Origin: Naegleria gruberi
Taxonomy: Eukaryota
Assembly (NCBI GenBank): GCA_000004985.1
Contig: GG738851.1
Reading direction: 5' to 3' (one strand)
Length of the DNA stretch: 64,000 nucleotides
Shown: in pieces, positions 16,094 to 47,788 of the stretch
Numbering within the stretch: position 1 is the first letter of the stretch
Layout of the letters: each line of letters opens with the position of its first letter
Made by a program: the position numbers and the translations under genes
The notes under the pieces: generated by a model
Told to the model about the DNA's origin: nothing
Database searches by the model: none
What the model saw: only the letters and a program-made list of their open reading frames with translations

Positions 16094-17050
16094 ATGAAAT
16101 TCTTCCCATTCCATTCTTCTTCTACTGGTGATGTATCATCGGATGTTGAGATCAAACAATTGTTACAACAAGCTGAGTTTTGTATGATCTCCGTACCTAG
16201 TATCGGAAATGTTGGACAATTGGCTATGGATTTTATGATTTCAACTTTTTATAATTCGAAATGTGCTCATATTAGTAAATTGGGATATTTAGAGACAGGA
16301 TTCTTGTTGCATTGTGTTGGTAATGATCCATATGTTCATCATAGAGATAATCATGTTGGAGAGGTGCACTCTGCTCTTGAAGTTTACTCTTTGCAATTCC
16401 ACACTCCTGGAAAACCAGAAGAAAAAGTTGGATCAAATATTGTTTTGATTCACTGTCGTTCTATTATAATTTATCCAACACTTTTTGTCAGAGATCTTAA
16501 TGAGTGGTTAGCTCAAGGAAATGATGATTACTTTTTGAAGAGTTTGCAAAATCTCATTATTTTGAGCTCTGCTAATGCAGGATTGCAAGATGATAGCTTT
16601 ATTCAATTTTTACAAGAAAAGCCACTTGAATTTGGTTTGGCAACTCTCTCATGTGATGTAAATGTAGTAGATGAAACAACCTTCCCACATGATCAATATC
16701 TTTCAAATATTCCAAAACTCGACAGACAAAAGTATCCACTATTTGTTTCAGGTGTAAATGCTAAATTAATGGAAAATCAAGAAACTTTTGGAAAGAATGG
16801 TGAAAGTAATGGACAAGTTAGAAAGTTGAACAGAGCTATTGTCTTTATGATTTGTAATGAAGGAGAAAACTCAATTCATGGTACTGCATTATGTAGAGTT
16901 GTGACTGGAGAAATTATTTTACCATTTATCAAGAACAATAATAAGGGAACACTTCCATTTGAAACATTGGACTCTATTGAATGGAAGATTCCACACAGTT
17001 GGAGACATTTCTATGGTAATCCAATTTCTGATTTAAATTTGTACAATTAA
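16094..17050 (+). CDS. PSMG2: Proteasome assembly chaperone 2 (PAC2/PSMG2)
   Basis: 318 aa with ATG at 16094. ISVPSIGNVGQLAMDFMISTF...GNDPY matches PSMG2 AVSVGNVGQLAMDLIISTL...GNNPY. The C-terminal WKIPHSWRHFYGN matches WKIPSSWRLLFG. Confidence 0.8.
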   Translation: MKFFPFHSSSTGDVSSDVEIKQLLQQAEFCMISVPSIGNVGQLAMDFMISTFYNSKCAHISKLGYLETGFLLHCVGNDPYVHHRDNHVGEVHSALEVYSLQFHTPGKPEEKVGSNIVLIHCRSIIIYPTLFVRDLNEWLAQGNDDYFLKSLQNLIILSSANAGLQDDSFIQFLQEKPLEFGLATLSCDVNVVDETTFPHDQYLSNIPKLDRQKYPLFVSGVNAKLMENQETFGKNGESNGQVRKLNRAIVFMICNEGENSIHGTALCRVVTGEIILPFIKNNNKGTLPFETLDSIEWKIPHSWRHFYGNPISDLNLYN

Positions 17051-17074
17051 TCCTATAAATAAGGTATTCCACAC

Positions 17075-20000
17075 TCAATTTATACTCAAATTCATCAAGA
17101 CAATTACAATTACTATCCAATTCAGATGCACTTTTTTAGAGCTATTAATCGTCAAGTTTCCCAAGTGTGAGGACTTAATTGGTGAAGGTATTGGCTTGTT
17201 GACAGGGTAACTGGAATGTGTTGGAGATGGCGTTGGCACATTGGTTGAGTTGTTGGCTGTGCTATTTGAAATTGGTTGAGGAGAAGATATTGGGTTTAGC
17301 TGTTCCACAATATTCCACTTGAATGGAATGGATATTAATTGTGAAATTCCATTCAATCCAACACCTTTCATTACCTTTTCCATTGGAATGCCCAATCTCA
17401 AAACTGAACAATTGGTTGTTGAATTGTGAACCAAGACAGGAAAGGTAATATTGTCAAATACCATATTTGCTTCTAATCCAGTGCAATTCACACTCGATAA
17501 TGGAATATCTTCCCTCAGCACTCTTCTAGTATCAATCTCAATACTCACATTACTATTTCCAGTTAAGGAAAGACTAAAGAATGAAGTGAGAAGTAGAGTT
17601 TGGGGCCATGTTGAATATCTCTCAACTATAACACTTGGTGTCGATTCAGAAACCACTGGTCCATCAACGTCTACATTTTCCACGTAAATTCTAACTCCAT
17701 TATCTGGTTCCCATCCATTTTCGTTTAGTTTCTTAATGAGAGGAATGTACTTTTTAAAGAGCTCTCTGTGTGGGTTATACAACAATGGATTATCCCAATA
17801 TCTTGAATTCATGGCATCTGCAGAGAAGAATGATGGATAAATGGCATAGAATGCACAATGTCTGAAATATGTTTCCACAAATTCCAAATTAATCATTGAG
17901 AATTTCACATTAAGGATAGTACTATATGGTTTCTTATAGGCCAAAGTTCGTATAAAACTCAACTTGGCTTCAGAATAAGGTGCATACTTAGCATTATTAT
18001 AATTAATCCAAACTACTTCTGTTCCCAAATTGTCAATCATGTTAAATCCGAAAAAGTATTCAGAAAGAACTCCATTACTCATTCCCAATCCACCATGTTC
18101 ATGCAAGAATTTGGTGATCATATCTACATAATCTATGGAAGAGAACCATTCAACCATTCCTACTCTAGAGTTGTAATATGTGAAGCACAGATGTGATTGA
18201 TTGAGGACTGACAAGTGATCTTGACTGAAATCCAATTCGTAGCCATTACTACCCCATGAATCAAAGAATTCTCCACTCAAATTATGAAACTTATGTTGAG
18301 GATTGAGGTAGATATTCCTTGCATCCTCATTCCATTCAGATTCTTCCTTACTCAGATAATTCAATGGAATTGGTGGCTTGGCTCTAATTCCTGGCTGTGA
18401 GTTTACAATGAAGACAGCACAAGGTTTTGTACACCACGGATAGTCAACATCCTGATAATTGTAAAACCCATTCTTGTTCTTAATTCCACTCACTAGCGCT
18501 GTCTGACACTGAACTCTATCGTATTCAATGAGTGCTGAATTATTTCCACAATCAATTGTTGCCTGAATTACTTGCGTGTAATTGGAAGGATCTGTTTGAG
18601 GTGAAAATCTTTGAAGATGAATATAAGCAGATGAAGATTCTGTCAAATATCTGAAGGTTCTAATATTGTGTTGCGCTCCAAATGGAATATCTCTATCTGA
18701 ATCTCCAATTTGATGAACACCAATTCCAAAATCTTCTATCTTTTCAATTTGTGTTAAATCACTGAAAGCTACCCATAATCCTTGTTGTGAATTTGGAATT
18801 CTTACTTTAAAGTAATCTGGGAATATCAAGGAGTAATCATCAATGGCTGATCTGAAAGGATAAGCCAATGGTTTTCCAAATGAATCCTCAGTTTTTGACA
18901 ATTTAAATAAACTCAACTGAACAGTTGCCTTATTAGGCGATAGAGTTTGAAGAGCACTTAACCCAATGTCAAATGCCACATATAATAATCTAGTGCCAGG
19001 ATTGAATGCCAATCTGAATATTCTTGGCTTGTCTGCTGGCACTCCAATTCCTATTCCAACATTTGAAGAGTTAACCATTCGAGTAGCCAAAGCTGCTAAA
19101 GGATACAAACCAATAAGACCATTATTGGATCCAAGATTTCCAAAGGTTGTCAAAGAGGAAAATTCAGAGCTTGTTTCTTTTACAGATCTTGACATTCTAA
19201 TAAAATCTCCCCATAACCAATTCATGGAAAAATCAGAGATTGGAATGCCAATATAAACAGTCAAAGCTCTTTCTGATTGTTGTGAATCAATATTCTCAAT
19301 AATACACTCAATATCAATGGAAAGATTTGTTGCCCTGTATGTGGTTTTTGTTGATAACATCAGTTCACTATTTCTTGAATTCACCTCAAGTGTTGACGAA
19401 TCTGAATTATTCAAAACTGAACCAGTCATTAAAATGAAAGAAGCATTATTTGATTGCTGACTATTGAAATCTTTCACAAACACTCCACCAACATAGAAAT
19501 CCGAAAGTGGTGACAATTCAGTCCCATTAATACTTGTTCCAATAATACTTCCATATTCAGAATCGAATGAAAGAGCCAATCCATTCCCACTCTCAATCTT
19601 TCTAATCCGTTTGCTTAAATCTATTGGTGGTAACGATTCTGGAACTCTTGCCACAGTGAAAGATTTATCAAATTTAGTAACCAAATTAGTCTTGAGCTCA
19701 CCAACAAAGATATCATCAAAATAGACAGTTCCAGTATGACCCCACCTAAATATACAATAAATAGTTAAGAATAGAATGGGTTTCTCTGGAAATATCACAC
19801 CATACTTATATTCCCAATCATGACTTCCAACAGAGAAGTGAACTTGCTGACCCCACAATGATTTCCAATCCGTATAGGTCACATCAATATAGAAACTGTA
19901 ACCATCATCCCCCACACCTGTAACATTCACTGCCTTAGACCAAGCAGAAAAGAACATGGCCTTTGGTTCTGTGTGAAATAAATTCATATACTGATAGGCA

Positions 20001-23128: not shown

Positions 23129-25280
23129 TTATCGATGTTTGAGTTTGTGTTTCAATTGTCTCTTGTCTGAGAGTGCCTTCTTCCACTTCTTTTCGTTTTG
23201 ACCCATGGTATTCTTGTGTCTGACGTTTCTGGACATCTTCAACATCATGTATGGCTTGTTCTTCTTCTTTTGCTTTTGAGTTTCTCCAGGTTGTTCCCAC
23301 TTTCTTCTGTTGAATTTCTTCTTTTCTGGTTCAAATTCATTGTCTGAATCGTCACCCTTAGAAATGTCACCAATATCATCTTCGTCAACATTTTCATTGC
23401 TAAAGATTGGGGTTTCTCTCTTTCTCTTCTTACCCATAAGCTTTTCCATTTCCTTGCTCTTTTTGAGTTTCTTAATCAACTCAAAGTCTTCTTGTGTAAG
23501 AATTCTGGTTTGATCAATTCTTGGGCCCTTTGGTTCCTCTGAAGCTTGTTCACCATCTTCAATGACTTCTTCTTCTTCACTGTCCAATTCGAAAACATCT
23601 TCCAAGTTCAACAATTCACCACCTTCCTCGTTATCAGATCCCTCAGAATCATCAGAGTCATCCATAGCAATATTGACATCATCTTCACCGTCGCTTGGAA
23701 CATCAATCCATTCACCTTCTTCATCAGAATCTTCACCATCAACAGCCATGAGATCCTTTTCAGATTCCTTTCTCTTATTGTATTCTTCCAATAATTCAAT
23801 GCCATCAACACCTTCAGCAACTCTTTGAGTACCAAATTCTGGAATGACTGCTTCAGGATCGTGATCTTTACCTCTGTCTTTCTTGTTCAACATCTTTGGA
23901 GAAAGTTCTCTGAAGAGTGTTATAATACCTCTAGCAGCATGGAAAACTTGTTTATCCTTATGTTTAGAATATTGAGATAAATCTCTCAAGAGGGTCTTGG
24001 TCATAACTCTTGGTTGTCTTGAACAAATAACTCTAATTGTATTCAAACCAGCTGCAATAACTTCTGGTTTGGAATGGTCATTAGCAAAATTGTTAGCAAT
24101 AGTCATGACGACTGGATGAATAACATCAGGAGGAACAAAATCGTGAACTGATTGGGCAGTAATGGCAAGAATCTTGGTAACATCTAAAAAATTGAAATAT
24201 ATCAGAAATTAAAATGTCACAAAACTTACTGGCTTGGGCAGGGAGTAAATATTTTTGAATGAAAGGATAAAAATTGAGAAGAACTAATTGATTTGAGGAA
24301 ACACATCTTGAAATAACGTCCAACATTAAAATTCTTACTTCAAATTTGTCATTTGAACTCTTCAATTTAGCAAAGAGTTTTTCAGAGAAACCTTGTGGAT
24401 CATTCAACATGTTGAGAACGTTCAATGATTCAATTTCCATACCCTTTTCCTTATGTTTATCCTTCTTTTTAAGTTGTTTGAGAGCTTTCTTAAATTTGTT
24501 TTCCTTTTTCTTTGTCTTTTTAGAGTGAATATTGTTAACTTTAAACTTTAAATCTCTAATCAAGTGACCAAGATCTCTATCATCTGATTTTTGTTTTGTT
24601 CCGTCTTCATCTTCTTCAGCTTCATCAACTAATTCACCCAAGAAGAATTTAAGTGCAATAACAACAAGAGCAGTATCTTCAGCAAAACATGATTGGGAAA
24701 TAACATTGACACATCTATCATCATTCCAAATACCTCTTCTATAAAGTGTAATTAAAAGTTGCAAACTCTTCTTTGCAGCAATACGGAATGAATCTTTCAA
24801 CATGGAAAAGACAAAGTTTTGCAATGATCTATTTACATTAGGATTCTTCTTCTTCATATTGATTTTAGTAATATCGGAGAGAATGTGTTTATAAACCATA
24901 CTTCTAAGAGTCTTATCATGTACTCGGAAAAGTTTAAATAATACTGGTATTAAAGTTTTAGAGTCAAGAATGTCGTTATTACGGAAAGCAATGAGTGTGA
25001 TAGCAAGTTGTCTTCTCAATTTTGGTTCTAATTCTAATTGTTTTGTTTCCAACAAATCCAAAATCATTGGTGCTGCAGTTTTGGTTTCTGCTTTATAAAC
25101 TTTGCAAGCAACACTCAAAAATTGCAACAATTTGACAAAATATTTAGCATCATCGGCTGGTCTCAATTTTGCAACTTCGGTTTGATTTTCCAAGTGTTTC
25201 AATTGAAGGAGGAAATCATCTTTATAAGCCTTTGGATCTTTAAAAACTTGTTCTTGAAGATGAAGGAGATCGATACTCAT
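23129..25280 (-). CDS. SDA1: SDA1 homolog (pre-60S ribosome export / actin organisation protein), 2 exons
   Basis: Exon 1 (24230..25280) encodes MSIDLLHLQEQVFKDPKAYKDDFLLQLKHL...VLLNFYPFIQKYLLPAQA and ends at a GTAAGT donor. A 46-nt intron (24184..24229) ends at a TTTAG acceptor. Exon 2 (23129..24183) encodes VTKILAITAQSVHDFVPPDVIHPVVMTIANNFANDHSKPEVIAAGLNTIRVICSRQP..., then an acidic region and a basic C-terminus. Confidence 0.8.
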
Positions 25281-30175: not shown

Positions 30176-33100
30176 ATGAAACAGCTTCAGAGGAAATACA
30201 TTGCTCACCAAGTGCTTATTCTATTGTTTGTCTTTTTAGCATTGTTTTCAAAAAGAACAATGTGTAACAAAGCTCTTGGGATCTCAACAATTGTTGTGGG
30301 AAACTTGACTAATCCGTTTGGCCTCTCCATAACCAATCAATCACTACTAGTGGCCAATACCATTGGTCAGACAATCCTCTATGTAGATTTGAATAATTAC
30401 TTTAATTATAGTGTCATTGTGGGTGTGAAAGATGTTGCTGGATTTAACGGAGATGGTCAATTGACATATTTAAATATTACACTTGCCAATCCACAAAAAG
30501 CTTTTAAATATAATTCATTGATTTATGTGGCCGACACTTGGAATCAGAGAATTAGAGTTATTGATGGGAATTTTATGTATACTTTAATTGGTGATGGTGA
30601 ATGTGGTGATTCCAAGAATGGAAATGATTTAAAATCTTTTCAATTATGTAATCCAACGGATATATTCGTATTGGATGATATAATTTATATATGTGATTCT
30701 AATAATCATAAAATAAGAAAGATACAAAATGGAACTGTTGAAACCATATGTGGAAATGGTGACAATGGATTTAATGGAGATGATATCAAGGCAGTTGACG
30801 CAAGTTTGAATGAGCCTCAATCTATATACGTTACCAGAAACACTAAAGGAACAGACCATATATTATATATAGCCGATACAAGCAATCATCGAATTAGGAA
30901 AGTGGAAAACGGAATTATTTCAACTATTTGTGGAAATGGTGAAAGTAAATATAATGGGGATTTGATTCCTGCTAAAGAAGCTTCTCTAAACAATCCAAAA
31001 TCTGTATTGGTAACATCTGTTGGTGAGGTTTATTTCAGATTTTTCAAATAATAGAATTAGAAAAATTTTGACAAATCAAACAATAATGACAGTAACAGAT
31101 TTAATAGATTCTCCAACAGGAATGAGTTTGGATGAAAAGAATAGCACTTTATATGTTTCTGAATTTCTTAAAGGTCAAGTGAAAAAGATTAGTTTTCAAT
31201 GTTCATATGGATATAAGATAGATTCGTATTTCAATTGTGAACCATTCTGCGAAAATGAATGTAAACATGATGGAATATGTATTGCACCAAACAAATGTGA
31301 TTGCTACTCTAAATATGATGGAGATTATTGTCAATATCCTATTTGCTATGGAATTCCAAGTAATATTAATTCCACATGTTCCAAAAATGGGGAATGTCAA
31401 GATTTTAACAAATGCCAATGTTATGATGGATATTTTGGAGATGATTGTACAGGAATACTTTGCTTTGGAAAGAACACAACAGATGCAACTGTTTGTTCTG
31501 GGCATGGTAAATGCATTGCCAAGAATCAGTGTTCCTGTACAGATGACATGTTTGGAGGATTGGAGTGTCAATATCCTAAATGCAGGGGAATAGAATCTGA
31601 TAAGAAAGAAGTATGCTCATCACATGGTAAATGTGAAGCTCCAAATACGTGTTCATGCTTTGAAAACTATGTTGGAGAGGACTGCCAGTTTATTTCTTGC
31701 TTTGGAAAATATTCGAATGATTCTAATGTGTGCTTTGGAAATGGCAATTGTTCTTCACCAGATTTTTGCGCGTGTAGAAAAGGTTATACAGGAACTGAGT
31801 GTGAATATACTACTTGCTTTTGGAAAGTTTCAAACGATTCCTCTGTTTGTTCAGGACATGGCAAGTGTGTGAAACCTGACACTTGTGAATGTTCCAATCA
31901 TGATCAGTTTACCGGTATTCAATGTGAAATACCAATCTGTTATGGTGTTCCAGCAAATAATAACAGTGTTTGCTCTTCACAAGGTACTTGTATTGATGTA
32001 GAAAGTTGCCAATGTAACTTGGGATATCATGGACCTATGTGTAATGTAATTGAATGTTTTAATCAATATTCCAATCAGAGTAGTGCCTGCAGTGGTCACG
32101 GGCAGTGCATTCTACCAAATCTATGCCAATGTCATGAGAATTCTTTCACTGGACTTGAATGTGAACTTCCAGTATGTAACAATATTACACAAACTGATCC
32201 AAGAGTATGTTCTGCTAATGGAGAATGCAAAGCAATCAATGATACTACGATATGTGATTGTAGGAATGGATATGCAGGAACTGATTGCGAATTTCCAACT
32301 TGTCTTGGAATTCCTTCATCTGATGTCGACAGAGTTTGTGGTGGAAAGGGAGATTGCTTGGCCCCTAATTTGTGTAAATGCAAAGATGGACTATATGATG
32401 GATTATATTGTGAATTTCCAACATGTAGTGGAAAATCAATGAGAAATAATACGGCATGTAGCGGTTTGAATCAAGGAATTTGTGAATCTCTAAACAATTG
32501 TGTCTGTAAACATGGATATACAGGAAACGAATGTCAAATTCCAATATGTTTTTCTGAATTGTCATCGTCACCTCTTGTATGCAGTGGACGTGGTACTTGT
32601 ACATCAGCTGACCGTTGCAAATGTAAGAACGGCTATTCAGGAAAGAATTGTGAAGTTCCTCATTGTTTTGGTATCAGTGCTAATCTTTCAAGAGTTTGTA
32701 ACTGGAGAAATGGTACCTGTGTTGATAAGGATCGATGTGAATGTAATTTAGGATATCATGGCAATAATTGTCAAGTTCCAACTTGTAATGGAATTCTCTC
32801 TACTGAGCCGTCATGTTGTGGAGGACCATTGCGAGGTCAATGTTTGGCTCACAACTCTTGCTCATGTGCCCATGGTAAATATGGTGGACCAAATTGTGAG
32901 TTTTCCTATTGCTTTGGAATACTTTCGAGTGAGGCAAATGTTTGTAAGGGAACGGGAACTTGTATTTATCATGACAAGTGCGAATGCCATCTTGGTTACG
33001 CTGGTAGTGATTGTGGAGTCCCTTTAGAGGCAGTGTATATTGCCTCATCGATTGGCGGAGTTATTGTCTTGGCCTTATTAGTCATTCTCCTTGTTGTTTG

Positions 33101-34316
33101 TTCCTTGTATTTGAGAAAAGTTATTAAGGCAAAGCAAAATTTGAAAAGAATGGAGAATCTTGTCGATGATAGGGAAATGTATACATCATTGGTAGAAACC
33201 AGTTTTCACAGCACATCCTCGAAGGATTTGTTTTTAAATCCGAGTGACTTTCAACCAATTCAGGGACAATACAGAGCCATGGAAGGTGGGCAAGGAAAAG
33301 TCTACGTCGCCAATTATATTGGTATCAAAGTTGCACTTAAAAAGTTCCATAACAATGTTCCAAATGATGACATGGACGAATTGTCAAATGGAATTTCTGA
33401 AGACATTGAAAAGGAAATGAGAATGTTAAACGGTCTAAGACATCCAAGTATTGTTACATTTTATGGATATACTCTCTATAATGGATCTCCTTCCATGGTT
33501 ATGGGATACGTTCCTCACGCCCTAAATTCAATCATTTACAAAATAAGGAGAGGTCAGAAAATGAGTTTGGATTTGAAAATTCAAATAATTTACAATGTTA
33601 GTCAAGGATTGGAACATTGTCATACAAGATCTCCTCCAGTGATTCACAGAGATATAAAATCAGCAAATATTTTACTGGATGTCAAGTCTGAAGAGGAAAA
33701 TATTATTTCAGAAGTAACAGAAGTCAAGATTTGTGATTTTGGATTAAGTACTAAAGCGGATAGAGCTGAAACAAAGGTTATAGGTACTCCACATTATATG
33801 GCACCTGAGCTATTTACTTTGAGAAATATGTACACTGACCTGTTTGTAAATGATGATGAAGATGAAGATGAAATTACAGATGGCAGCTTTGATGATTCAG
33901 TGGATTATGACACATCTTCCGATGTATATTCTTTAGCTATTGTTATGTGGGAGCTATTCTTTGAATTACCACCGTATGACATGTCCGTTTATGATCAATG
34001 TCATCCTTCACTTTTTAGAAAAATTGCCAAACATCGAAAAATGTCTGCCCAAGCCTCCAAAGATTTACTTTCAAGAGGTATTCTCCTGAGTAAGGCTAAT
34101 TTCAGACCATTCATCCCATTCGATGATAGCAACACTCAAGATTGGTTATTGAATTACAGAACCTTTGATGTTAAATTATTTGGAATTGACCAACTTGAAA
34201 CCTTAACTAAACAATTCATAAATCTCATGAAAGAATGTTGGAAGACAGATCCATATCAAAGACCTCAATCTTCCAAACTCAAAGAACAACTCCAAAAGAT
34301 GCTGAATAAGAAATAA
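30176..34316 (+). CDS. Receptor-like Ser/Thr kinase: extracellular NHL-repeat beta-propeller + ~25 EGF-like (tenascin/integrin-beta type) repeats + TM + TKL-type kinase domain; apparent 1-nt frameshift near 31030-31045
   Basis: ATG at 30176 (MKQLQRKY..., a signal anchor). The NHL motifs are YVADTWNQRIRVI, YICDSNNHKIRKI, YIADTSNHRIRKV and FISDFSNNRIRKI. The fourth NHL unit straddles the switch from ORF 30131..31051 to ORF 31020..34316, which lie in different frames. The cysteine repeats are about 31 aa each (C..G.C.....C.C..G..G..C). The TM helix is IASSIGGVIVLALLVILLVVCSLYL. Kinase motifs are VALKKF, HRDIKSANILLD, DFGLS and GTPHYMAPE. Confidence 0.75.
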
Positions 34317-35977: not shown

Positions 35978-38900
35978 ATGACGTCCAGAGTGTTTCCTCA
36001 ATCACAAAACACAGCTAGAGTCGCAGGAAGTGTAGTACTAAACGATGCAGAAACTTCCTCTCAATTTGGAGCAGGAACTTCTACCACTTCAAGCTCATTT
36101 GCTTCATCATTGGGTGGGAAAAGTGTTGTAAACAATGCAGGAATAAGTATTTTCTCACTGATAACAACTCTAAGACCTAAAGATACACTAGTTGGTGACG
36201 AGAATACTTACATGTTCCTAGGAATGATATTCTATCATATCTACTTGATATACAACTCTGTAATACTCTCATCACTTTCAACACCAATGATTAGAGATGA
36301 CGATACTAGAACATTGTGGGGAGTTATACCTGGTTGGATATGGAGAGCTTTGTATTTTCCAATCAATTGGGCATCTGAATTCTATCCTTACTTTCTAATT
36401 ATTTCACTATCAATAGCGTTTCTAATTTTACAATTTTCAACTTGTTTTGGAATTTATTATTGTAAATGGGCTTCAAGAAAGGGAGGAAAATTATTTGGAA
36501 GGATCAAGACATTTCTGCTGAATTCATTGTTATTCCAAAGAACTTTTACTTTATTCATCTTGTCTATTCATGCAATTTTGTTATCTCCAAATCTGGATTC
36601 CCAAAATGGAACTTTATATTATTTTCCAAGTCAATCTTTCAGCTCAGTGATACAAATAGTTTGTACCGTAATAGGATGTGTTGGAATATTGTTGAATATT
36701 GGTTTGACGGCTATTGCAACACTTTTAACTGCTGAAACGAGCCCTAAATTGAGCAAAAGAATTTGGTTTTCATTGTATTCAATTTCGCCTTTCATGTTCT
36801 TTAATTTTGTGAATCAAATTAGTTTAGTTTCAACTATTATTTGTACAGGACCTTATACCTATGTTGCTTCTATTGTGAAGATTGTAATGAACGTATTCCT
36901 GCTTATAGTAACGATGAAATCCTTACCATTCTTTAGAAAATGGGAGAATTGCTTTTATTTGGCATTGGTTAGTTTGAAAGTTTTTACTCCAATCCCAACT
37001 TTAATTTTGCAATTTCTTTCCTCGAATCAATTGAATCAACAAGAGATTGGTGGAATAATGACTGGTGTTACTTTTGCAACGGCAGTCATTTCTTTTGGAT
37101 CTGGCTTTATTATTTCTTACGTTTGGTTAGTAATTGAAATGAAATCAGTCAGAAATATGATTTCTAATAAGGAAGACAGTTCCGCAGCATTGCTTCTTCT
37201 TGAGAAATCAAAAAAGAAACAAGATAGTCTTTCACTATTCCTAAGATTTGCAAGCAATAGTGCTCCAGAAATGAAAGTGAGGGAAGGAAGCGATTTTGAC
37301 TTGGCCAAACATGCTGTAAACACACTAGTCAAACCAATTGAAAATGTTGAACTGTTAATTGTCAGTTCCTTATTTGTATCATTTGGTGGTATTCCAGATT
37401 ATGATAGTTCTCAATCATTTAGTATTGGATTGGCTCTATTACAAAAATCTCAACGAATTTCACCATCACTAGCTCAGGTATTCAATATCATGTTAAGAAA
37501 TGAAGAAATAGAATATCATGCCTTTCATGGAAATAATCTTGAAGTTTTAAGAAAACTTGTAATGGTTGAAAAGAAAGTGAAATCATTGTCTAGATGCCAC
37601 AAGTCATTCTTTAAAGAATTATTGAATGATAAACCATCTATTGGTAAATTAGAACAGATTAATAGTGCCAGTTGTTCAATTTATAACGAATGCGACACAA
37701 TTTATGATAATTTACTGGCTTCTAATAGATCCAACAAGACTCTGTTGAGATCGTATGCTTCCTATTTGGAAAAATACAAGTGGGAAATCCAGTTAGCAAA
37801 ACAATTATTTGAGGAAGCTCAAGACAATGATGAAGATAAGAATAAGCAACCGTTTAAGGCATACGAATCCTCATTCCATAAAGGGAACACCTCTAGGTTT
37901 AGTATAGATTCACAAAGAGCTAATATGGATGGTTGGGATTCAGTAAGTGTTGCTGGTGTAGAAGAGAATGACGAAGAAAGAAAAGATCATGTTTTGAGAA
38001 TGGCAATCAACTCTCCTATGTCAACAATTGTATATTCCACATTGTTTTTCCTATTCTGTGCTCTCTCAGTACTAACTATTTGTATCGTTGCTCCCGTTTC
38101 ACTTGTATTTTCTCAGAGTATCAATGAGAGAATGACCATGCAAGAGAAGGTATGCCTAATGACCTCAGTTCCATACAAATTATTAGCTCAGATTCAAGCA
38201 CTTCAAACAGAATATAATTTGAGAGGAAATAATACTGAAAAGCTACTTAATTCTACCATTGATTATACTAATAACTTGTTGGATACTGTTAAAACAGTGG
38301 TATCGGCTGGAGACAATAATATGCTAATGCCAGAAGTTGCCAGAGAATATTTGAAAAATCAATACGAACTTCAACTTCCAATTACAAATGATTCATTAAT
38401 TGGAAAGGAAATTCCTGCATATACAGCCACCAACGCCTCTATTCAATTCTATTTATCTGCTATGTACACTCATGGAAAGACCTTGTTAAATGAATTTAAT
38501 GCTATGGACGGACTGGTTTCGAATACCGATGAGAATTATGCTTTCTTATTTATTTTCTACAATAGAATTCCAATGACTTTAGCTTTCAATAGCTTGTGCT
38601 CTAAATTTGTTGAAGAAAGTGTATCTTCAATTGAAACAAATTTTGAACGCTTGTGGATAATCACAGTTTCCACTCTGGTAACTTATTTGAGTATTTCACT
38701 AATTTTCTTTACAATATTATTCACACACTCGAGAAGACTTGTTGTTGAGCTCAAAGAAATATTTAGAAGAATAACCAAAGATGAAATAGGGAAAGTTTAT
38801 CACAATTTCGAAAAGAAAATAGATGATTCTATTAGCTCTTCAAATAACCTTTTGAAAATGAGCAATATCCTAATGATTGGAAGTTTCCTCTTTGTAATCA

Positions 38901-40804
38901 TCATCTGCCTATGTTCCTTACTAGTCATTGTAGAGCTCAACAGCAACACCAAACAAAGTGCTCAATCCATGAATATTGTCGGTTCAATCAATGCAGTTTC
39001 ATTAAGAACTGCAAGAACCAACTTTAGATTACTCTGGTATATTGATAGGATAAAGTATTTAACCTTGGAACCTTCATTTGTTAACCAAGAAAATAAGCAA
39101 GATTTACTAGATTTGAGAACTTATTGGAATTATGTTGTGGTAGGCGATGAATCAACTTCTTACACATCTGCCATTTATGGAAAATATGATGATGTTGATT
39201 ATATATTATCTGATCTTTGTAATGATACTATTTCAATGGCTGATCCTTGTCACAGTTTAACTGCTGCCTTGACTGATTACATTACAAAAGCTCTTGATTA
39301 CAATGAAGTGTTCTATTACCAAAAAAAGAGTCAGACATTTATGGTAAATGAATATTTTGGGAAGATATTCTATGTTACGCAGACAATTACTTCCAATTTA
39401 CAAACTTTAATCTCTGCTCTTGTCACTCATGAAAAGGTTTCAAGTGTTGGGATAACAGCTTCTATGATTAGCTTATGTTTTATTTCCGCAATTTTATATG
39501 CTGTCATATGTTATTCATCCTTGAATAGGTATTGGAAAGAAAGAGCTTGTTTGAGAATGATGTTGAATTATATCAATTTAGATCTCATTGAAAGCAATTT
39601 GATATTGAGAGAATATGTCATGTCAAATGTTGTTCCTTCCTCAAAGATTTCCTCTAAAATAGTGCCATCTTTTGAAAGTGAGAAAGAAAAGGATGAAAAG
39701 ATTGAAATGGTCAAGACCATATTGAATGGAGGCGTAGATTCTGCAATTATTTGTGATAAGGATGGAAATATTACAATTTTCAATAATTCTGCTGAGGAAA
39801 TGTTTGGCTATTCCAGATCACAAGTTTTAGGTTTACCAATTCAAACTCTATTCACTTCTGAATATTCTGAGAGAATCATGAAATTGGTTTCTACTGGTGA
39901 ATCGCATGATTCATTCGAAGCAATGTCTCAGAGACGAAACAAGACTCATTTCTCTTCAAAGGTTTCAGTTTCCATTTCCATTCATGAAAAGAAACAAATT
40001 TTGATTGTCTTTATTCGTGATATTACTCCAGAAAAGAAACAGAGTTTATTAATTGCTGAGGAAAAGAAGAAGAGTGAAGATTTACTTTTGAATATTTTGC
40101 CAATGTCCATGGCTTCAAAATTGAAGAATGGTGAGGAGCATTTATATGAAAAAGTGAATGATATTACTGTTTTCTTTAGTGATATGGTTGGATTTACTGC
40201 ATGGAGTTCAAAACTGCAACCTAGTGAACTAGTTCATATCCTAAACTCGATTGTTACTGGATTTGATAAGCTGACTGAAATTCACTTGATTGATAAGATT
40301 AAAACTATTGGAGATGCCTATTTTTGTGTAAGTGGATTACACTCATGTAAATCTTCCGATCACCCAGAAAGAATGTTAAAGTTTGCCATTGAAATTATGT
40401 CCTTTTTAAAGAATATCAACACATCAAATCAAACATTAATTAATGTGAGAATTGGCATGCACACAGGCGATGCTGTTGGAGGAGTCATTGGATTTAAAAA
40501 GTTTGCCTACGATCTGTGGGGTGATACCATCAATACTGCCTCTCGTATGGAATCAACATCACTTCCAGGTAGAATTCAAATTTCCAGATCTACCTATGGA
40601 AGAGTTTATGACCTATTCGAATTTGAAGAGAGATTAATTGAAGTGAAAGGAAAAGGAGAATGTCAGACTTATCTACTGAAAGAGAAACATCATGAGAATC
40701 CAATAGCTCTTAATAACATGGCACAAGTGGAAGATAATGATCATTTAGAAGTTTCACAAGGACCATTTTCAAGCCATAAAGAAGATGAGCAACAGCAACA
40801 GTAA
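35978..40804 (+). CDS. Multi-pass membrane, PAS-domain-containing class III adenylyl cyclase (1608 aa)
   Basis: Single ORF with ATG at 35978. The N-terminal polytopic domain has about 8 TM helices. Further TM pairs bracket two exoplasmic loops of about 150-180 aa. The PAS domain is ILNGGVDSAIICDKDGNITIFNNSAEEMFGYSRSQVLGLPIQTLF. The cyclase core carries FSDMVGFT, KIKTIGDAYFCVSGL, IGMHTGD, AYDLWGDTINTASRMES and PGRIQIS. The Lys in KIKTIGD and the Asp in DLWG are the adenine-specifying residues, so this is predicted to be an adenylyl cyclase. Confidence 0.85.
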   Translation: MTSRVFPQSQNTARVAGSVVLNDAETSSQFGAGTSTTSSSFASSLGGKSVVNNAGISIFSLITTLRPKDTLVGDENTYMFLGMIFYHIYLIYNSVILSSLSTPMIRDDDTRTLWGVIPGWIWRALYFPINWASEFYPYFLIISLSIAFLILQFSTCFGIYYCKWASRKGGKLFGRIKTFLLNSLLFQRTFTLFILSIHAILLSPNLDSQNGTLYYFPSQSFSSVIQIVCTVIGCVGILLNIGLTAIATLLTAETSPKLSKRIWFSLYSISPFMFFNFVNQISLVSTIICTGPYTYVASIVKIVMNVFLLIVTMKSLPFFRKWENCFYLALVSLKVFTPIPTLILQFLSSNQLNQQEIGGIMTGVTFATAVISFGSGFIISYVWLVIEMKSVRNMISNKEDSSAALLLLEKSKKKQDSLSLFLRFASNSAPEMKVREGSDFDLAKHAVNTLVKPIENVELLIVSSLFVSFGGIPDYDSSQSFSIGLALLQKSQRISPSLAQVFNIMLRNEEIEYHAFHGNNLEVLRKLVMVEKKVKSLSRCHKSFFKELLNDKPSIGKLEQINSASCSIYNECDTIYDNLLASNRSNKTLLRSYASYLEKYKWEIQLAKQLFEEAQDNDEDKNKQPFKAYESSFHKGNTSRFSIDSQRANMDGWDSVSVAGVEENDEERKDHVLRMAINSPMSTIVYSTLFFLFCALSVLTICIVAPVSLVFSQSINERMTMQEKVCLMTSVPYKLLAQIQALQTEYNLRGNNTEKLLNSTIDYTNNLLDTVKTVVSAGDNNMLMPEVAREYLKNQYELQLPITNDSLIGKEIPAYTATNASIQFYLSAMYTHGKTLLNEFNAMDGLVSNTDENYAFLFIFYNRIPMTLAFNSLCSKFVEESVSSIETNFERLWIITVSTLVTYLSISLIFFTILFTHSRRLVVELKEIFRRITKDEIGKVYHNFEKKIDDSISSSNNLLKMSNILMIGSFLFVIIICLCSLLVIVELNSNTKQSAQSMNIVGSINAVSLRTARTNFRLLWYIDRIKYLTLEPSFVNQENKQDLLDLRTYWNYVVVGDESTSYTSAIYGKYDDVDYILSDLCNDTISMADPCHSLTAALTDYITKALDYNEVFYYQKKSQTFMVNEYFGKIFYVTQTITSNLQTLISALVTHEKVSSVGITASMISLCFISAILYAVICYSSLNRYWKERACLRMMLNYINLDLIESNLILREYVMSNVVPSSKISSKIVPSFESEKEKDEKIEMVKTILNGGVDSAIICDKDGNITIFNNSAEEMFGYSRSQVLGLPIQTLFTSEYSERIMKLVSTGESHDSFEAMSQRRNKTHFSSKVSVSISIHEKKQILIVFIRDITPEKKQSLLIAEEKKKSEDLLLNILPMSMASKLKNGEEHLYEKVNDITVFFSDMVGFTAWSSKLQPSELVHILNSIVTGFDKLTEIHLIDKIKTIGDAYFCVSGLHSCKSSDHPERMLKFAIEIMSFLKNINTSNQTLINVRIGMHTGDAVGGVIGFKKFAYDLWGDTINTASRMESTSLPGRIQISRSTYGRVYDLFEFEERLIEVKGKGECQTYLLKEKHHENPIALNNMAQVEDNDHLEVSQGPFSSHKEDEQQQQ

Positions 40805-40989: not shown

Positions 40990-43989
40990 ATGTCCCAAGC
41001 AAATTCATTGAGCAATGAAGGTGGTGGTATCAGCAAAGATGTTAATCCACCTGTTGAAGATTTTCCGTCTGCCGAGGTGGAAGAGGAAGAATTTTACAAT
41101 TCATCATTTGATGATAGAAAACAAGTGAGTGGGAGAATTGAAGAACAACAACAACATGATGACGATAATCCAATTTTGATGACTATTCCATCATCAAATT
41201 ATGGATATTCCATCAATGATAATTCCGTTTCGCAACTACACCAACAACAACAAGGAGAAGAACAACAATTTAATTCTTCTTCGGCTACCATCCATGCCAA
41301 TAGTTGGAAAGAGAAAATTCAAGCTATGAGAGGAGGTGGTTGGAGAGAGTATTTCAATATTGTTTCGATTTGTTCCTTTCTGACTGTAACATTGTGTTTC
41401 GCTGCTGTTTCGTTTATTTTCTTGATTTATCCATTTGTGTATGTGAGAGATTTTTCACACACTTTGGTAGAAAGTTCACAAATCAAATTGCAACCATACT
41501 ATCCACTCGGTTATAAACCAAAAGGATATGTACCAAAGTTTTCTCAAGCAACCACCAAATTGACAGTTCCAGGAAATGCAAGATTCATAATGTTATCTTT
41601 TGTAGCAAATGCATCAGTGGAAGCTGTCGTTTTCAGAAATACTCTCACTTACTATAATCAATTCATTGATGCAACAGCTTTGAGTGCCTACTATACGAAT
41701 CAGACACAATTCATATTCGATAATCCTTTGGAAAGAAGCTTTTTTGTAATTTCAGAAAATTACTATGCAACCAGATTCTTTGCAACAAAGATTATGAATC
41801 ATACGAGTTTGGAGTTTGATAATTCTCCATTGAATAATGAAAACAAAACTGTGCTGTACATTGTTTGGAGAAATGAAAATTTAACTCCTCTCGAAAATAC
41901 CATTGTAATCGATTATTGGTACAGACTTGAATATGATGATTATAGGGAGACTACAAGTTTCACATTTGCCATGATTTCATTTGGTGCTTTTGTTCTTGCA
42001 GCTAGTTGTGTCTTGTTAAATACTCCAACAGTTTCTGGAATTTTCTCAATAGTTTACAATTTCTTGAGAAATTTACTATCATTCAAAAAACCTCTACCTG
42101 AAAATGGAGAGTGGAGTATTGATAATACTTTAGCACGAGGAGCTGACATTATTTTCCAAGATTTGTCATTTGTCTCATTCACAGATAAGGTAATTTTATA
42201 TCCAACAACTGGAATTTTGAAAGCTGGCAAGTTAACAGCAGTTATGGGTCAATCTGGTTCTTCAAAATCAACTTTTTGTAATGTTCTTTGTGGAAGAGCT
42301 TCCCATGGTATTCAGAAAGGAAAAGTCCTAATCAATGGAAATTCATTCTCTGGAAATACTAACAATTTAGTTGGATTTGTTACACAAGATGACATTATGT
42401 CTCCTCATTTAACTGTCAAGGAAACTTTGGAGTTTTCATGTAAGATTAGAAAGAATAAGAAGAATTCTGAAAAGGTCGAAGGTGTAATGCAAAAGTTAGG
42501 AATTACAAAAGTTCAAAATTCACAAACTTCAGTAATCAGTGGAGGTGAAAAAAGAAGAACATCAATTGGTATTGAAATGGTTGCAGACACACCAATTTAT
42601 ATTCTAGATGAACCTAGTTCTGGACTCGATTCAGAATCTGCTCTCTCCCTTTGTAAAACCCTTAGAGAAATAGCAGAAGAAAACAACTCGAATATTATTT
42701 GTGTTATCCATCAACCTTCATATGAAATATTGGAACAATTTCATGATATAATGCTGTTCAGGGAAGGTAGATTACTATTCCACAGTCCTGTACCAACTGT
42801 AATCCAATCACTCAAAGAGCATATCCCTTCTCATATTATTCGTAGCAATCCTGCTGATGAGATTTTGAGAACTCTTTCAACAGATTCTGTTGAAATTGTT
42901 AATTCCATTATCAAAAATACTGATCCAGCCATTCATTCCATTTCGAGAAAGCTCGAATTAGATTGGAAAGATATGAAAACTTCACCATTTTACATTCATT
43001 TCTATGCATGTTTTGTGAGAGCTGTCAAACAATTCTACAGAGATTGGAGAAATTTGATATTTGAAATTCTCATTTCCTTTGTTGTTGGTTTGCTTATTGG
43101 AGTATTATTTAATGGTCTTGAATTTATTGGAAGTGTTTCAAGTTCAAAATATAGCAAATGTCCAATAGAAATCAGAGCTGGTTGCATGCTTCCTCAATCG
43201 GATACGATTGCTCCATACTCATCTTTCCTCGTTTTGGCCATTGCATTGATATCTATAATGAGAGGTTTGAGAGTTTTTGGATTTGAAATTGAGAATTTCA
43301 AAAGAGAATCTCATGTAGGTCTCAATTCTTGGATGTACTTTTTATCGAAGGATTTGATTTCAATTTTTGTGATTGCTGTCATTTCTTTCAGTACTACATT
43401 TGGCATGTTATCTGCATTACCACATACTAACTTTTTCATTCTCTATGCCATTGTATTTCTAACAATTATGGCTGGTTTTCCAATTGGTTATACATTGTCA
43501 TTCTTCTTTGATCCACAAATAGCTCAATTGGCAGCTGCCTTAGTAGTTGTAGTATTTTACAGTTTTGGAGGAAATAATCCAACCATTCCTGAAATTGAAA
43601 AGCTTTCTCCAGTTCTTGCCTACAGTCACGTTATCACCTATTTTAGATATATTAGAGGTTTAATTTATATGGAAGAACTTATTACAAGAAGAGAAGATAA
43701 CGACATTGCATCAGCTCTTAAGGTGAATGGATATGAAATTGAAGCAATTTCATTCTACTTTTATGCTCTCTTCTTTTGGATTGTAGTTTTCAGGTATATG
43801 GCAGTATATTGTATGTGGGCTTGGAAACCTCGTTCTCTGTTCAGTAAGATTAATTTCCTATCAAGGAGATTGACTGGACGATTCTCTACCTGGTTTTCAA
43901 ATAAGATTGTTCAACCATTGAGAATGAAAATGAAAAGAAATAAGTATAAGGAAGTTGATAACTCTGAAGTAAATCCTTTCAAGCAATAA
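40990..43989 (+). CDS. ABCG-type half transporter (NBD-TMD) with ~350-aa N-terminal extension
   Basis: Walker A is MGQSGSSKST, the signature is VISGGEKRRTSIG and Walker B is IYILDEPSSGLD. These are followed by six TM helices of the ABC2 type. The N-terminal extension is low-complexity (QQQQ, SS) with two hydrophobic helices. Confidence 0.85.
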   Translation: MSQANSLSNEGGGISKDVNPPVEDFPSAEVEEEEFYNSSFDDRKQVSGRIEEQQQHDDDNPILMTIPSSNYGYSINDNSVSQLHQQQQGEEQQFNSSSATIHANSWKEKIQAMRGGGWREYFNIVSICSFLTVTLCFAAVSFIFLIYPFVYVRDFSHTLVESSQIKLQPYYPLGYKPKGYVPKFSQATTKLTVPGNARFIMLSFVANASVEAVVFRNTLTYYNQFIDATALSAYYTNQTQFIFDNPLERSFFVISENYYATRFFATKIMNHTSLEFDNSPLNNENKTVLYIVWRNENLTPLENTIVIDYWYRLEYDDYRETTSFTFAMISFGAFVLAASCVLLNTPTVSGIFSIVYNFLRNLLSFKKPLPENGEWSIDNTLARGADIIFQDLSFVSFTDKVILYPTTGILKAGKLTAVMGQSGSSKSTFCNVLCGRASHGIQKGKVLINGNSFSGNTNNLVGFVTQDDIMSPHLTVKETLEFSCKIRKNKKNSEKVEGVMQKLGITKVQNSQTSVISGGEKRRTSIGIEMVADTPIYILDEPSSGLDSESALSLCKTLREIAEENNSNIICVIHQPSYEILEQFHDIMLFREGRLLFHSPVPTVIQSLKEHIPSHIIRSNPADEILRTLSTDSVEIVNSIIKNTDPAIHSISRKLELDWKDMKTSPFYIHFYACFVRAVKQFYRDWRNLIFEILISFVVGLLIGVLFNGLEFIGSVSSSKYSKCPIEIRAGCMLPQSDTIAPYSSFLVLAIALISIMRGLRVFGFEIENFKRESHVGLNSWMYFLSKDLISIFVIAVISFSTTFGMLSALPHTNFFILYAIVFLTIMAGFPIGYTLSFFFDPQIAQLAAALVVVVFYSFGGNNPTIPEIEKLSPVLAYSHVITYFRYIRGLIYMEELITRREDNDIASALKVNGYEIEAISFYFYALFFWIVVFRYMAVYCMWAWKPRSLFSKINFLSRRLTGRFSTWFSNKIVQPLRMKMKRNKYKEVDNSEVNPFKQ

Positions 43990-44040: not shown

Positions 44041-46485
44041 TCATTTATTGTTGAAAAATTTAAAGAAATTCCAAGATTTGTTGTCTTTACAGTTTTTGTT
44101 AATGTATGTAATTAAATGTTGTTTACCCTTTTCCGTTGCATACTTTTGAACGAATTCTATGGATGCCCCTTTTTTAATGAGATTTTGAGCCCACTCGGCA
44201 CTGCCATTAATATCAGCCACAGTCACCAATGCACTGCTCAACACATTACTTGATAAATTGCAATTATTGAATATCCACTCAAAAATAATAGTATTTCTAT
44301 TCTCAATCGCAATCTCTAAAGGATAACCACAATCAATGCCTTGTTCTTCGTGAAAATGTGGATAGTTATTCGAATACCATTGAATTGCTGGAAGATATTC
44401 AAGGACACAAGCTCTATGAAGAGGACCATCAATATAGTACATGTCTTTTGTTAAGGATATTTTCTGGCCATCTATGTTAATAGTTTCTAATTTTGGAGTT
44501 GACTTCAAGGCATCAATTATTTTTCCATTTTCCTCAATAATAGCAATAAAATACAAGTATTTTAAATTATTTGATAATACTGAATTAGTATTTTTCACAT
44601 TAATATCTTCAAAATATTCCAATAAATTTGAATAATCAACATTGTCCAGTACGTCCAATAACTCTAAAACAGAAAATGATTTTACAGAAAATTCTTTAGC
44701 AATTCTGGTTAAATGTTCTGGTTCTTCTGATTTTTGTTGGTTGTAAGTAGTTGTGGCAATTTCAAACATTTGGTTATCATCCAATAGAGATGCAAAAGTC
44801 ACTTGTCTGATATAATTCTGTTGATATTGTTTTCTACACCAATTGATTCCAATTAGTGTTGTAGTAGAAGGAGCATTTTCAATCTTCAACTGATTCCTTA
44901 TTGAATCCAAGTCTATTGAAGGTCCATCACTAAAGGCAATAAATATAGTCTTTAAATGAGAGGGGAAATAGTTATTTGCTACCTGCAAACATGAATCTAG
45001 TAATGCTGGTTTCGAACAATCAATCAATAATATCATTGCTTTTGCATTTCTCATGTATGTTTCAAAAATAATTTTAAATCTTTCTTGTTCTGCTAAAAAC
45101 CAGCATATAAACTTATGATCAAAGCAACTAACTAACCTAAAATCAACACCAATCAGTGAGTGAGAATTCCTATAAATATTTAACGATTTTGTAATGTTTG
45201 TATGTGCCGGTGATCCATAGAATGTTGCCAAACATAAATGGTACACAGGTAATTCAATTGGCTTTTCGATAATGGTCTGATTTGCTTGTTGAATTAATTG
45301 TTCAATAGAGGGACGATCATTTGGTTGCAAGCTCATCATTTTCAATATTAGCTCAATGAGATGATCAGAATATTTCATACGTTGATATTTTACAAAATAA
45401 TCCTTCAATAACTTTGGATGTTTACACATTGAATTACATAGAGTTGATAAATCACGTGTCATTAAGTAATATAACGTGACACCTAATGCAAAAATGTCAG
45501 ATTGAGTAGAATATGGTTGTTTGATATCCAATATTTCATAATCAATAATTTCAGGTGCTAAATATTTAAATGTCCCACTCAATTGTGAAATTTCTGTTGA
45601 ACTATTGGTGTTAGTTTTTGCAAATCCAAAATCACTCAAACAAACTTGAATATTATCTTGTTTGGTATTAATGGATTTGATTAAAATGTTTGCAGGTTTA
45701 ATATCTTTGTGTATGATATTAAATTTTTGAATATGTTTTAATGCATTTCCCATTTGTTCTATAATTAGTAATATCATTTTTTCAGATGGAATGTTATTTG
45801 GATTTTTAATGAAATAATCGAATAAGTTTCCAAATTCTAAACAATCCATTTCAATACATAAAAAAGATTGATTGTTGCTAATGAAAGCAGTATGCACACG
45901 AATAATATTCTCATGTGATACCTTAACTGTTTGTATAGCCTCATGTAATGCTTGATTCATGTCAAATTCCAAAGATGGATATATTACTTTGACAGCTGCA
46001 ATACTTTGATTTTTTCTTTTCACTTGATAAACAATTCCGAATGCTCCACTTCCTAACTCGTTTATAATTGTTGAGTATCTATTTAATAATTCTTCTTTTA
46101 CATTTTTGCTATTATTATTCAAACTATTAATATTATTATTCAAACTATTAATATTATTATTCAAAGTATTATTATTATTAATATTAATATTATTTGAAGT
46201 ATTAGTAGTAGTTGTTGTATTTTCAAATTTCTTTATATTCTTGATCAAATTACAAATAGAATGAGCATGAATTGGTTTAATACCTAATTGAATAAGAGCC
46301 TGTTCATCGGAATAGAGAAGTGTAAAGCCTGTACATTCTTGTTCAATTAGTACTTATTGAAGTTATTAACTTGGATGAATAATTGTGAAAAACATACTGT
46401 CAACTACACTCTTGGGGCAACCATTCCGAAGTAGCCAATTACCCACCCGTTCTGTTGACCAAGAGGTAAAGTCATTGTCGTCCAT
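44041..46485 (-). CDS. Ser/Thr protein kinase fused to a degenerate Rab-like pseudo-GTPase domain and C-terminal ANK-like region; 2 exons
   Basis: The main exon (44041..46283) has a poly-Asn tract and a kinase domain (LGSGAFGIVYQV...AAVKVI, HKDIKPANILI, DFGFAK, APE). Next is a Rab-like block, HLCLATFYGSPAHTN...SLIGVDFRL...ICWFLAEQERF...MILLIDCS...IFIAFSD, aligning to Rab G1, IGVDF, WDTAGQERF and NKxD with the P-loop and NKxD degenerate. The ORF-table start at 46248 is a TTG. A putative 5' exon (46398..46485) encodes MDDNDFTSWSTERVGNWLLRNGCPKSVVD with a GTATGT donor. A 114-nt intron ends at acceptor AATTAG at 46284-46285. Confidence 0.7.
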
Positions 46486-46644: not shown

Positions 46645-47788
46645 TTACAAATCAACTCCAGAATAGAATAAAAACTTGTTCAACAATCTCATGTACCAAT
46701 GATCTATCAGAATGTGTTTCTCATTATTAGATGAGAATAATTGCTCACAAATTACTGAAGAAACTTTTTGAGGAGATTGAGCATTGTCCATCATCTTTTT
46801 AGCCACTTGATAGAGTTCCATATAAGGTTTGTAAAATTGTGAGCTTTCACTGAATGGTTTCATATTCAAAATTTGGGTTTTTGCAAATCCTGGCTCAATA
46901 CCTATTTCAATAATTTATAAATCATTGTAAAATTGAATGAAAACTTACAAGTAACTCTCAATCCTTGAATAGATTTGAATTCTCTTCTCAAACCGTCTGA
47001 AAATCCATAAAGTGCAAACTTGGTGGTACTGTAAAATCCAGTAAATTTAACAGCACTGTAACTTGCAGCAGATGCAACATTAATTACAATTCCTTGATTA
47101 GATTTTGAATCGTTCTCTTGGTTGTTTGAAATCATCATTGGGTAAATACATCTCAACATTCTAATAGGTCCTAAAATATTCACTCCAAATACATCCAACA
47201 TTTCAGTTTCGGATAATTCAGCTAATCCTGCTGTGTTTTTTGTTTTTGGTGATGAAGTAATTCCTTAATTAGACCAAATACTTGAGTGATATTCCATTCC
47301 AACAATTGATTTTGAATTAATTTTGCAGTGTTTTCAACCTGTTCATTATTCGTTATATCACATGCAAATAATTTCAACTTTTCACAATTATCCGAAAGTT
47401 CTTGCTCGAAAACTTGTTGCATTTGTGAGAGAGAATAATCAATTACAATAACCTTTGCATTCCATCTCGAACCCAATAATTCTTTAGCAACCAAAGATCC
47501 TTAATTAATTAAATATTTAATTAATATCATTATCATAAATACTTGAAATATATTTAAAAACCTACCAATCCCACCCGAGCCCCCAGTAATTACAATTACT
47601 CTATCCCGAGATGAAATATCACATTTTGGTGAATTCCTTCTCAACATCCAATACAACACTGAGGTTGCAATTGTTGTTCTCCACGGATTTTCCCTCATGA
47701 CATTCCAAATATCTGCTAAATAATGATAAACACCACTATTTAAAAGCCCAGAAATTATTTGTCCACCACCAATATTAAATTTCTCCAT
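46645..47788 (-). CDS. Short-chain dehydrogenase/reductase (SDR) family protein, multi-exon (>=4 exons)
   Basis: Exon 1 (47566..47788) encodes MEKFN...VIVITGGSGGIG, the TGxxxGxG motif, with a GTAGGT donor. A 66-nt intron follows. Exon 2 starts at ~47499 and encodes LVAKELLGSRWNAKVIVIDYS...ACDITN. Exon 3 (ORF 46902..47201) encodes VNILGPIRML...NVASAAS...YSTTKFAL, with the catalytic YxxxK. Exon 4 (ORF 46645..46869) is the C-terminal tail. The internal junctions are approximate. The canonical NNAG motif was not located. Confidence 0.6.

Follow-up and report, generated by a model that had tools for sequence, protein, structure and literature searches.

A Rab-derived pseudoGTPase module joined to a predicted active protein kinase in Naegleria gruberi

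What can a Rab-like domain contribute to a protein kinase once its nucleotide-binding motifs have gone? This question is raised by a gene on the minus strand (46485..44041) of a 64,000-nucleotide stretch of Naegleria gruberi DNA (contig GG738851.1 of assembly GCA_000004985.1), which was analysed as a whole and is called the window here. PseudoGTPases are few and poorly understood, and the role of the G domain in LRRK2 and DAPK1 is debated. For the present gene, an original prediction had claimed a Ser/Thr kinase followed by a Rab-derived block, degenerate G motifs with nucleotide binding probably lost, and a hidden 5′ exon supplying the start codon. All three claims hold. In the reading that we favour, with some reserve, the two exons of the gene encode a 799-residue signalling protein in which a SAM domain, a linker and a catalytically competent kinase would be followed by a nucleotide-independent module composed of a pseudo-Rab domain, a coiled coil and ankyrin repeats. 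The SAM domain and the C-terminal coiled-coil and ankyrin part had not been foreseen, nor had the fact that this part and the pseudo-Rab together make up a conserved, unannotated module common to amoebae and bacteria.

Judged by its sequence and a predicted model, the domain behind the kinase descends from a Rab GTPase and keeps the G-domain fold. First, a phmmer comparison of residues ~384–600 with all PDB sequences retrieved Rab12 at E=2.4e-5, and the best 60 matches were almost exclusively Rabs. A profile built from the eight copies of the family (see below) matched Rab30 at 1.5e-10 and Rab1 at ~5e-10, the best 60 matches all being Rab, Ypt or Sec4 proteins. Second, motifs peculiar to the Rab family are kept. 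Thus, IGVDF (RabF1; residues 430–434) is intact, and the interswitch Trp, ERF and Y-x-R-x-A are retained, the last being an intact YYRGA in the relative P0123; both blocks named in the original prediction, IGVDF and WFLAEQERF (447–455), were found. Third, an AlphaFold2 model of residues 388–799, built on a six-sequence family alignment, reached a mean predicted local distance difference test score (pLDDT) of 78 and a predicted template modelling score (pTM) of 0.79. Over the first ~165 residues of the model, the secondary-structure elements run b1-a1-b2-b3-a2-b4-a3-b5-a4-b6-a5, and the small-GTPase fold expected of a Rab is present in the predicted model. Structure alone cannot tell a Rab from an Arf; the sequence evidence, including the intact RabF1 motif, does.

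None of the five nucleotide-binding motifs survived in alignments to canonical Rabs and across the family. In place of the P-loop (G1, canonically GxxxxGK[ST]), a four-residue loop, YGSP, lies between b1 and a short a1. The switch-I Thr of G2 is a Leu. G3, canonically DxxG, reads F-L-A-E here and F/E/L/Y-x-x-E in all copies, the position of the Gly being an invariant Glu throughout. G4, canonically NKxD, reads P-S-I-D, and the SAK of G5 is replaced by a family motif, W-x-K-K-x-YQQ-x-YIR. Regarding G4, the motif had previously been read as FSD; HMMER and MAFFT both align the GPSID (506–510) that comes just after FSD to GNKxD. The eight copies, which come from seven proteins, have all lost G1–G5; where switch II used to be, a W and an E are invariant. 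Because the losses recur in every copy, the degeneration goes back to the ancestor of the family and did not arise by decay of this one gene. As motifs and model both indicate, nucleotide binding has very probably been lost: every residue class for the binding of guanine nucleotide and Mg2+ is gone, so that no GTP/GDP switch appears possible. If binding is indeed absent, the published definition (PMC12490416) would make the domain a class i pseudoGTPase.

The pseudo-Rab does not stand by itself: on sequence comparison, everything behind the kinase belongs to a single conserved module that had not been annotated before. When 1.84 billion representatives were searched exhaustively by phmmer, this part of the protein had only 13 matches at E<=1e-3, among them an N. 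gruberi fragment and a small number of true Rabs (E ~1e-4). The module relatives are P0122/P0134 from a JGI metagenome (1965 residues at full length), P0123 (1936 residues), P0124 from a gammaproteobacterial metagenome-assembled genome (MAG, GCA_022599525.1; 2869 residues, with two tandem pseudo-Rab copies) and three Dictyostelium proteins of ~2100 residues each. The match is collinear through the pseudo-Rab, the YQQxYIR motif, the coiled coil, a DYSDL helix and the ankyrin repeats (P0122, E=5.7e-25, query 20–379; P0123, E=9.7e-25, query 13–355). The ankyrin-like region of the Naegleria protein aligns with clear ankyrin repeats of the relatives and is modelled by AlphaFold2 as helical repeats at pLDDT 70–95; the pTM obtained for the three parts together suggests that they pack compactly. 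In the giant relatives, the module is C-terminal, with leucine-rich repeat (LRR)-like repeats ahead of it. Viral and metagenome contigs scanned with the module alignment yielded no further members, and with the full protein only generic kinases; the 64-kb window contains no second copy. The result is a Rab-derived pseudoGTPase family that spans two eukaryotic supergroups and bacteria, and for which Pfam and NCBIfam both lack a model.

The N-terminal regions of the giant relatives deserve a separate remark. Two of them contain the invariant motifs DYKxxN...GIDND and DGxxxNY...IDN[DE] (~330–380 and ~915–965 in P0123; likewise in P0134, P0126, P0127 and P0131), which recall the catalytic and Mg-binding loops of kinases. 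The putative kinase-like region (GDYKPEN...GIDND) has no match among PDB sequences, Pfam or NCBIfam, and its AlphaFold2 model is of low confidence, with a pLDDT of only 52 and a best Foldseek match at E=0.18.

What role could the module have? Since the nucleotide motifs are gone, yet the fold, the interswitch Trp, the invariant Glu and the Rab-family motifs are kept, an interaction or regulatory role appears most plausible. Class i pseudoGTPases neither bind nor hydrolyse nucleotide and act as protein-interaction modules, AAGAB being one example (PMC12490416). In such a scheme, the module would act constitutively and independently of nucleotide, either by interacting with proteins or as a regulator; it would dock the kinase to a partner or compartment, or keep it in a defined conformation, while oligomerisation or scaffolding would come from the SAM domain. 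As described in two published accounts (PMC12490416; PMC5593906), the psGD of AAGAB, pG1/pG2 of p190RhoGAP, and CENP-M have in common with the present domain both a GTPase fold devoid of G motifs and an expected interaction or regulatory role. However, no relationship to these proteins is detectable; the domain here is Rab-derived, attached to a kinase, followed by a coiled coil and ankyrin repeats, and known from its sequence and a model. The reading that we favour has its weaker points. First, the P-loop region of the predicted model has a pLDDT of only 60–67, and the loss of binding is deduced from motifs and model. Second, there is no full-length orthologue to compare, the sole close relative being a 133-residue N. 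gruberi fragment annotated as a predicted protein (XP_002668332; 95% identity to the C-terminal 133 residues).

How did the module come to follow a SAM domain and a kinase? A 966-residue protein encoded on an ENA metagenome contig, P0001, has the same cassette of SAM domain, linker and kinase, with 34% identity in an alignment that starts at the SAM domain and extends through the whole kinase. Behind the kinase, P0001 bears Sel1-type repeats where the Naegleria protein has the pseudo-Rab/ankyrin module. Because P0001 has this cassette in common with the Naegleria protein and bears Sel1 repeats instead, the Naegleria gene appears to be a product of domain shuffling. Thus, a SAM-kinase cassette would have been joined to a module that is otherwise found at the C-terminus of giant LRR proteins, in dictyostelids and a few uncultured Gammaproteobacteria. 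The contig of P0001 (L003; ENA contig k141_360802) is densely packed, and NADAR and PARP genes adjoin the P0001 gene.

The bacterial members of the family adjoin RecR, riboflavin-operon, patatin, flagellar and ATP-synthase genes, and these genuine bacterial neighbourhoods show that they are truly bacterial. On the MAG contig (L001), two patatin-like phospholipase genes (7645–9500) lie directly upstream of the gene for the 2869-residue module protein (9572–18181), which also has pentapeptide repeats and a match to a DUF294-like nucleotidyltransferase.

Such bacterial copies raise the possibility, which we regard as real though doubtful, that the module was acquired fairly recently by horizontal transfer from an intracellular bacterium, or that bacteria took it from amoebae, the bacterial copies being secreted effectors that mimic the host. 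With the same doubt, the Naegleria kinase would then mark the host pathway that is imitated. The distribution is indeed patchy, with matches in Naegleria, Dictyostelium, and uncultured Gammaproteobacteria or metagenome contigs, and the Naegleria copy is slightly nearer the bacterial P0122/P0123 clade (28–32% identity) than Dictyostelium (23–26%). The bacterial proteins, with ankyrin and LRR repeats and patatin genes alongside, resemble Legionella-type effectors and suggest another host-mimicking effector domain. For Legionella, the acquisition of Rab-domain effectors from protists is documented, and modular effectors with Rab-like and ankyrin domains are thought to have arisen from exchange with protist hosts (10.1101/350777). 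However, identities of 23–32% speak against a recent transfer, the differences between the clades are small, and among GTDB species genomes only one, that of an uncultured gammaproteobacterial MAG, bears the module. As for the likeness to the Legionella effectors, their reported Rab domains keep the structural features of eukaryotic Rabs, whereas the module is degenerate in all its members, and the species-genome scan found it in that MAG and in no Legionella genome. No homologue was seen in N. fowleri or another heterolobosean, an absence that possibly stems from annotation gaps.

A broader proposal, offered as speculation, is that the module is an undescribed, ancient, nucleotide-free signalling unit that has moved between amoebae (Naegleria and dictyostelids) and their intracellular bacteria. 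In bacteria, the module would be the working end of giant secreted effectors, and the amoebae would have wired the module to kinases, namely a canonical eukaryotic protein kinase in Naegleria and possibly the atypical DYKxxN...IDND kinase-like domains in the giants. If true, this would amount to a ROCO-like logic of G domain and kinase without any nucleotide cycle.

Whatever its history, the nucleotide-independent module that we favour can be compared with two better-known groups. With Rab GTPases such as Rab1, Rab12 and Rab30, it has in common the G-domain fold, a homologous sequence and RabF motifs that are wholly or partly kept. Unlike them, the pseudo-Rab is internal to a multidomain protein and lacks G1–G5, with the YQQ-containing family motif in the place of G5. 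The C-terminal prenylation cysteine motif, a Rab trait, is absent, the Naegleria protein ending in ...FFKFFNNK. Having neither G motifs nor a prenylation site, it is no member of the Rab family in the functional sense.

The second group is the ROCO proteins (LRRK1/2, DAPK1 and the Dictyostelium Roco kinases), which, like the present protein, combine a Ras-superfamily G domain, a kinase and repeats in one chain. The repeats in question are ankyrin here, whereas the giant relatives of the module have LRR. Since no COR domain follows the G domain, as it does in the RocCOR tandem, the comparison is an analogy only and the protein is no ROCO protein; a functional GTP-binding Roc domain with a conserved DxxG is likewise lacking. 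The order of kinase before pseudoGTPase had been described as the reverse of that in ROCO/LRRK proteins. This is correct for the LRRK-type proteins but not for DAPK1, in which the kinase already precedes RocCOR (PMC6337361).

The same likeness bears on the alternative that the Rab-like domain still binds nucleotide in a non-canonical manner and regulates the kinase intramolecularly, which we consider improbable. In its favour, the layout of a kinase followed by a G domain and ankyrin repeats recalls DAPK1 (PMC6337361), the weak matches to GTPase families are headed by Pfam Roc (19.2 bits, under threshold), and the Asp of the NKxD-equivalent GPSID is kept. Set against these points are the losses from G1 to G5 described above, and we retain the nucleotide-independent module. 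So understood, the Naegleria fusion would provide a contrast to LRRK2 and DAPK1, being a compact and tractable combination of a G domain with an apparently active kinase and without a nucleotide switch. A separate idea, that the pseudo-Rab serves as an intramolecular pseudosubstrate of a Rab-directed kinase, by analogy with LRRK2, which phosphorylates the switch-II Thr of Rabs, found no support, the residue aligned with Rab8a T72 being Ile.

As regards the kinase itself, Pfam Pkinase was matched at 154.9 bits against a cut-off of 31.7, and GSGAFG (130–135), AAVK151, HKDIKPAN (244–251, with HKD at 244–246 and N251), DFG (270–272) and APE (295–297) are recognisable. As all catalytic motifs are present, the kinase is probably active, and the HKD in place of HRD makes it one of the non-RD type. 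The best PDB sequence matches are CaMK1G, NEK1 and SLK; because these closest solved relatives are reached at ~1e-21, we assign the kinase to no specific known subfamily.

The gene model, on which the SAM domain depends, was settled as follows. The long minus-strand open reading frame (ORF; 46248..44041) has a TTG at 46248 as its listed start, although no stop interrupts the frame as far as 46353. Inspection of the frame bore out the original prediction that it has no ATG ahead of the kinase: no in-frame Met precedes the glycine loop, and the first lies downstream of the VAIK lysine. The 88-nucleotide 5′ exon with a GTATGT donor was also correctly foreseen, the ATG at 46485 being the first downstream of an in-frame stop. 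The acceptor, by contrast, had been placed at 46284/46283, which is off by 69 nucleotides. All in-frame GT..AG pairs (n=22) were enumerated, and candidates were scored against the Pfam profiles SAM_1 and SAM_2. On this sequence evidence, the splice acceptor is 46353 (last intron base), with exon 2 starting at 46352. The resulting 45-nucleotide intron gave the best SAM scores among the scored candidates, that is, 30.0 bits for SAM_1 (cut-off 23; model 3–66) and 36.9 bits for SAM_2 (cut-off 20.5; model 2–64), both profiles being matched at full length and without gaps. A full-length SAM match above the gathering score holds only with this intron, and reading through it leads to a stop codon. Furthermore, the SAM region aligns with that of P0001, the nearest homologue, and the BLASTP alignment (E=2e-52) crosses the 46398|46352 junction, with VDILIEQECTGFTLL matched to VKVLLENYVNGEVLL. 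We chose the 45-nucleotide intron because it alone restores the full SAM domain and because the product aligns with P0001 across the junction. Two validated introns of the adjacent short-chain dehydrogenase gene are 47 and 66 nucleotides long and have GTA.GT...AG ends.

A different gene model, with an intron of 60, 69 or 114 nucleotides (the last with its acceptor at 46283) or a non-AUG start within the long ORF, is quite improbable. The acceptors 46338, 46329 and 46284 are all in frame with the GTATGT donor. However, they lower the SAM_1 score to 24.3, 24.1 and 12.6 bits, respectively, and the SAM_2 score to 20.4 and 19.8 bits and, for 46284, to no match at all; the 69-nucleotide intron (46329) was rejected on this ground. 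The alternative introns also remove the residues ILIEQEC, which align with P0001, and a start within the ORF would lose the recognisable SAM domain; the first in-frame Met comes only after the VAIK lysine. The two-exon model corrects the annotation, since the searched collections represent this gene only by the 133-residue fragment mentioned above. The features of the gene and its product are listed in Table 1.

Table 1. Exons, intron and protein segments of the kinase-pseudoGTPase gene; positions are those of the window.
Feature	Residues	Position	Strand	Remarks
Exon 1		46398..46485	(-)	88 nucleotides; ATG at 46485; 29 codons + 1 nucleotide; 48% guanine plus cytosine (GC); first half of SAM domain
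Intron		46353..46397	(-)	45 nucleotides; GTATGT...AATAAG; 24% GC; phase 1
Exon 2		44041..46352	(-)	2312 nucleotides including stop 44043-44041; frame uninterrupted
SAM domain	8-70	46231..46464	(-)	spans intron; Pfam SAM_2 E=4e-9, SAM_1 E=6.8e-7
Asn/Thr-rich low-complexity linker	~71-125	46066..46230	(-)	read from translation
Ser/Thr protein kinase	126-385	45286..46065	(-)	Pfam Pkinase E=3.4e-45
Rab-derived pseudoGTPase (predicted G-domain fold)	399-552	44785..45246	(-)	Rab homology by sequence; beta1 VYHLCLATF; YGSP loop in P-loop place; IGVDF 430-434; WFLAEQE 447-453; YMRNA 462-466; GPSID 506-510; NWCRKQYQQNYIR 533-545
Long helix / coiled coil	556-586	44683..44775	(-)	AlphaFold2 helix, model residues 169-199, pLDDT ~90; collinear in all relatives
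Helical segment ELLDVLDNVDYSNLL + ankyrin-like repeats	591-784	44089..44670	(-)	weak Pfam Ank_5, Ank_3, Ank_2

That the Rab-like similarity is a product of chance or composition and the region no G domain at all is hardly credible: the Pfam Ras, Roc and Arf matches are all under their gathering thresholds, and in word-index homology searches neither the Rab-like segment nor the family alignment had a match, but the phmmer and profile matches to Rabs, the kept RabF motifs and the predicted fold stand against it.

The surroundings of the gene are those of compact eukaryotic nuclear DNA, with ~33% GC and long, mostly uninterrupted ORFs. Genes for SDA1, Hsp70, a Wntless-like protein, a SHIPPO-repeat protein, a PAS-cyclase and an EGF-repeat kinase were recognised in the window. 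Its density and AT-richness had made us consider a giant virus as its source; this was rejected, since the window holds ciliary, ribosome-biogenesis and Wntless genes, spliceosomal introns and the 95% match to N. gruberi. The short-chain dehydrogenase gene (46645–47700, minus strand) lies directly upstream of the kinase gene on the same strand; its introns at 47565–47500 (66 nucleotides) and 46948–46902 (47 nucleotides) restore the TGGSGGIG and PG motifs, and a putative third intron near 47281–47231 has no in-frame GT..AG placement. On the other side, an intronless plus-strand gene (40990–43989) encodes a 999-residue G-type ABC half-transporter that is much extended at its N-terminus; this gene and the kinase gene converge, their stop codons being only ~51 nucleotides apart. 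Two further plus-strand ORFs encode multidomain products. One (31020–34316; 1098 residues) has many teneurin-type EGF repeats and a C-terminal protein kinase in a receptor-kinase-like architecture, and the other (35978–40804; 1608 residues) has a TPR region, PAS and an adenylate/guanylate cyclase catalytic domain. A tRNA-Thr gene (anticodon TGT; 3986–4069, minus strand) is the sole tRNA gene in the window. Finally, the SDA1 homologue (23129–25280, minus strand) is split into two ORFs in different frames that overlap at ~24106–24190; the probable cause is a short intron whose last bases, ttttttag, lie near 24185.

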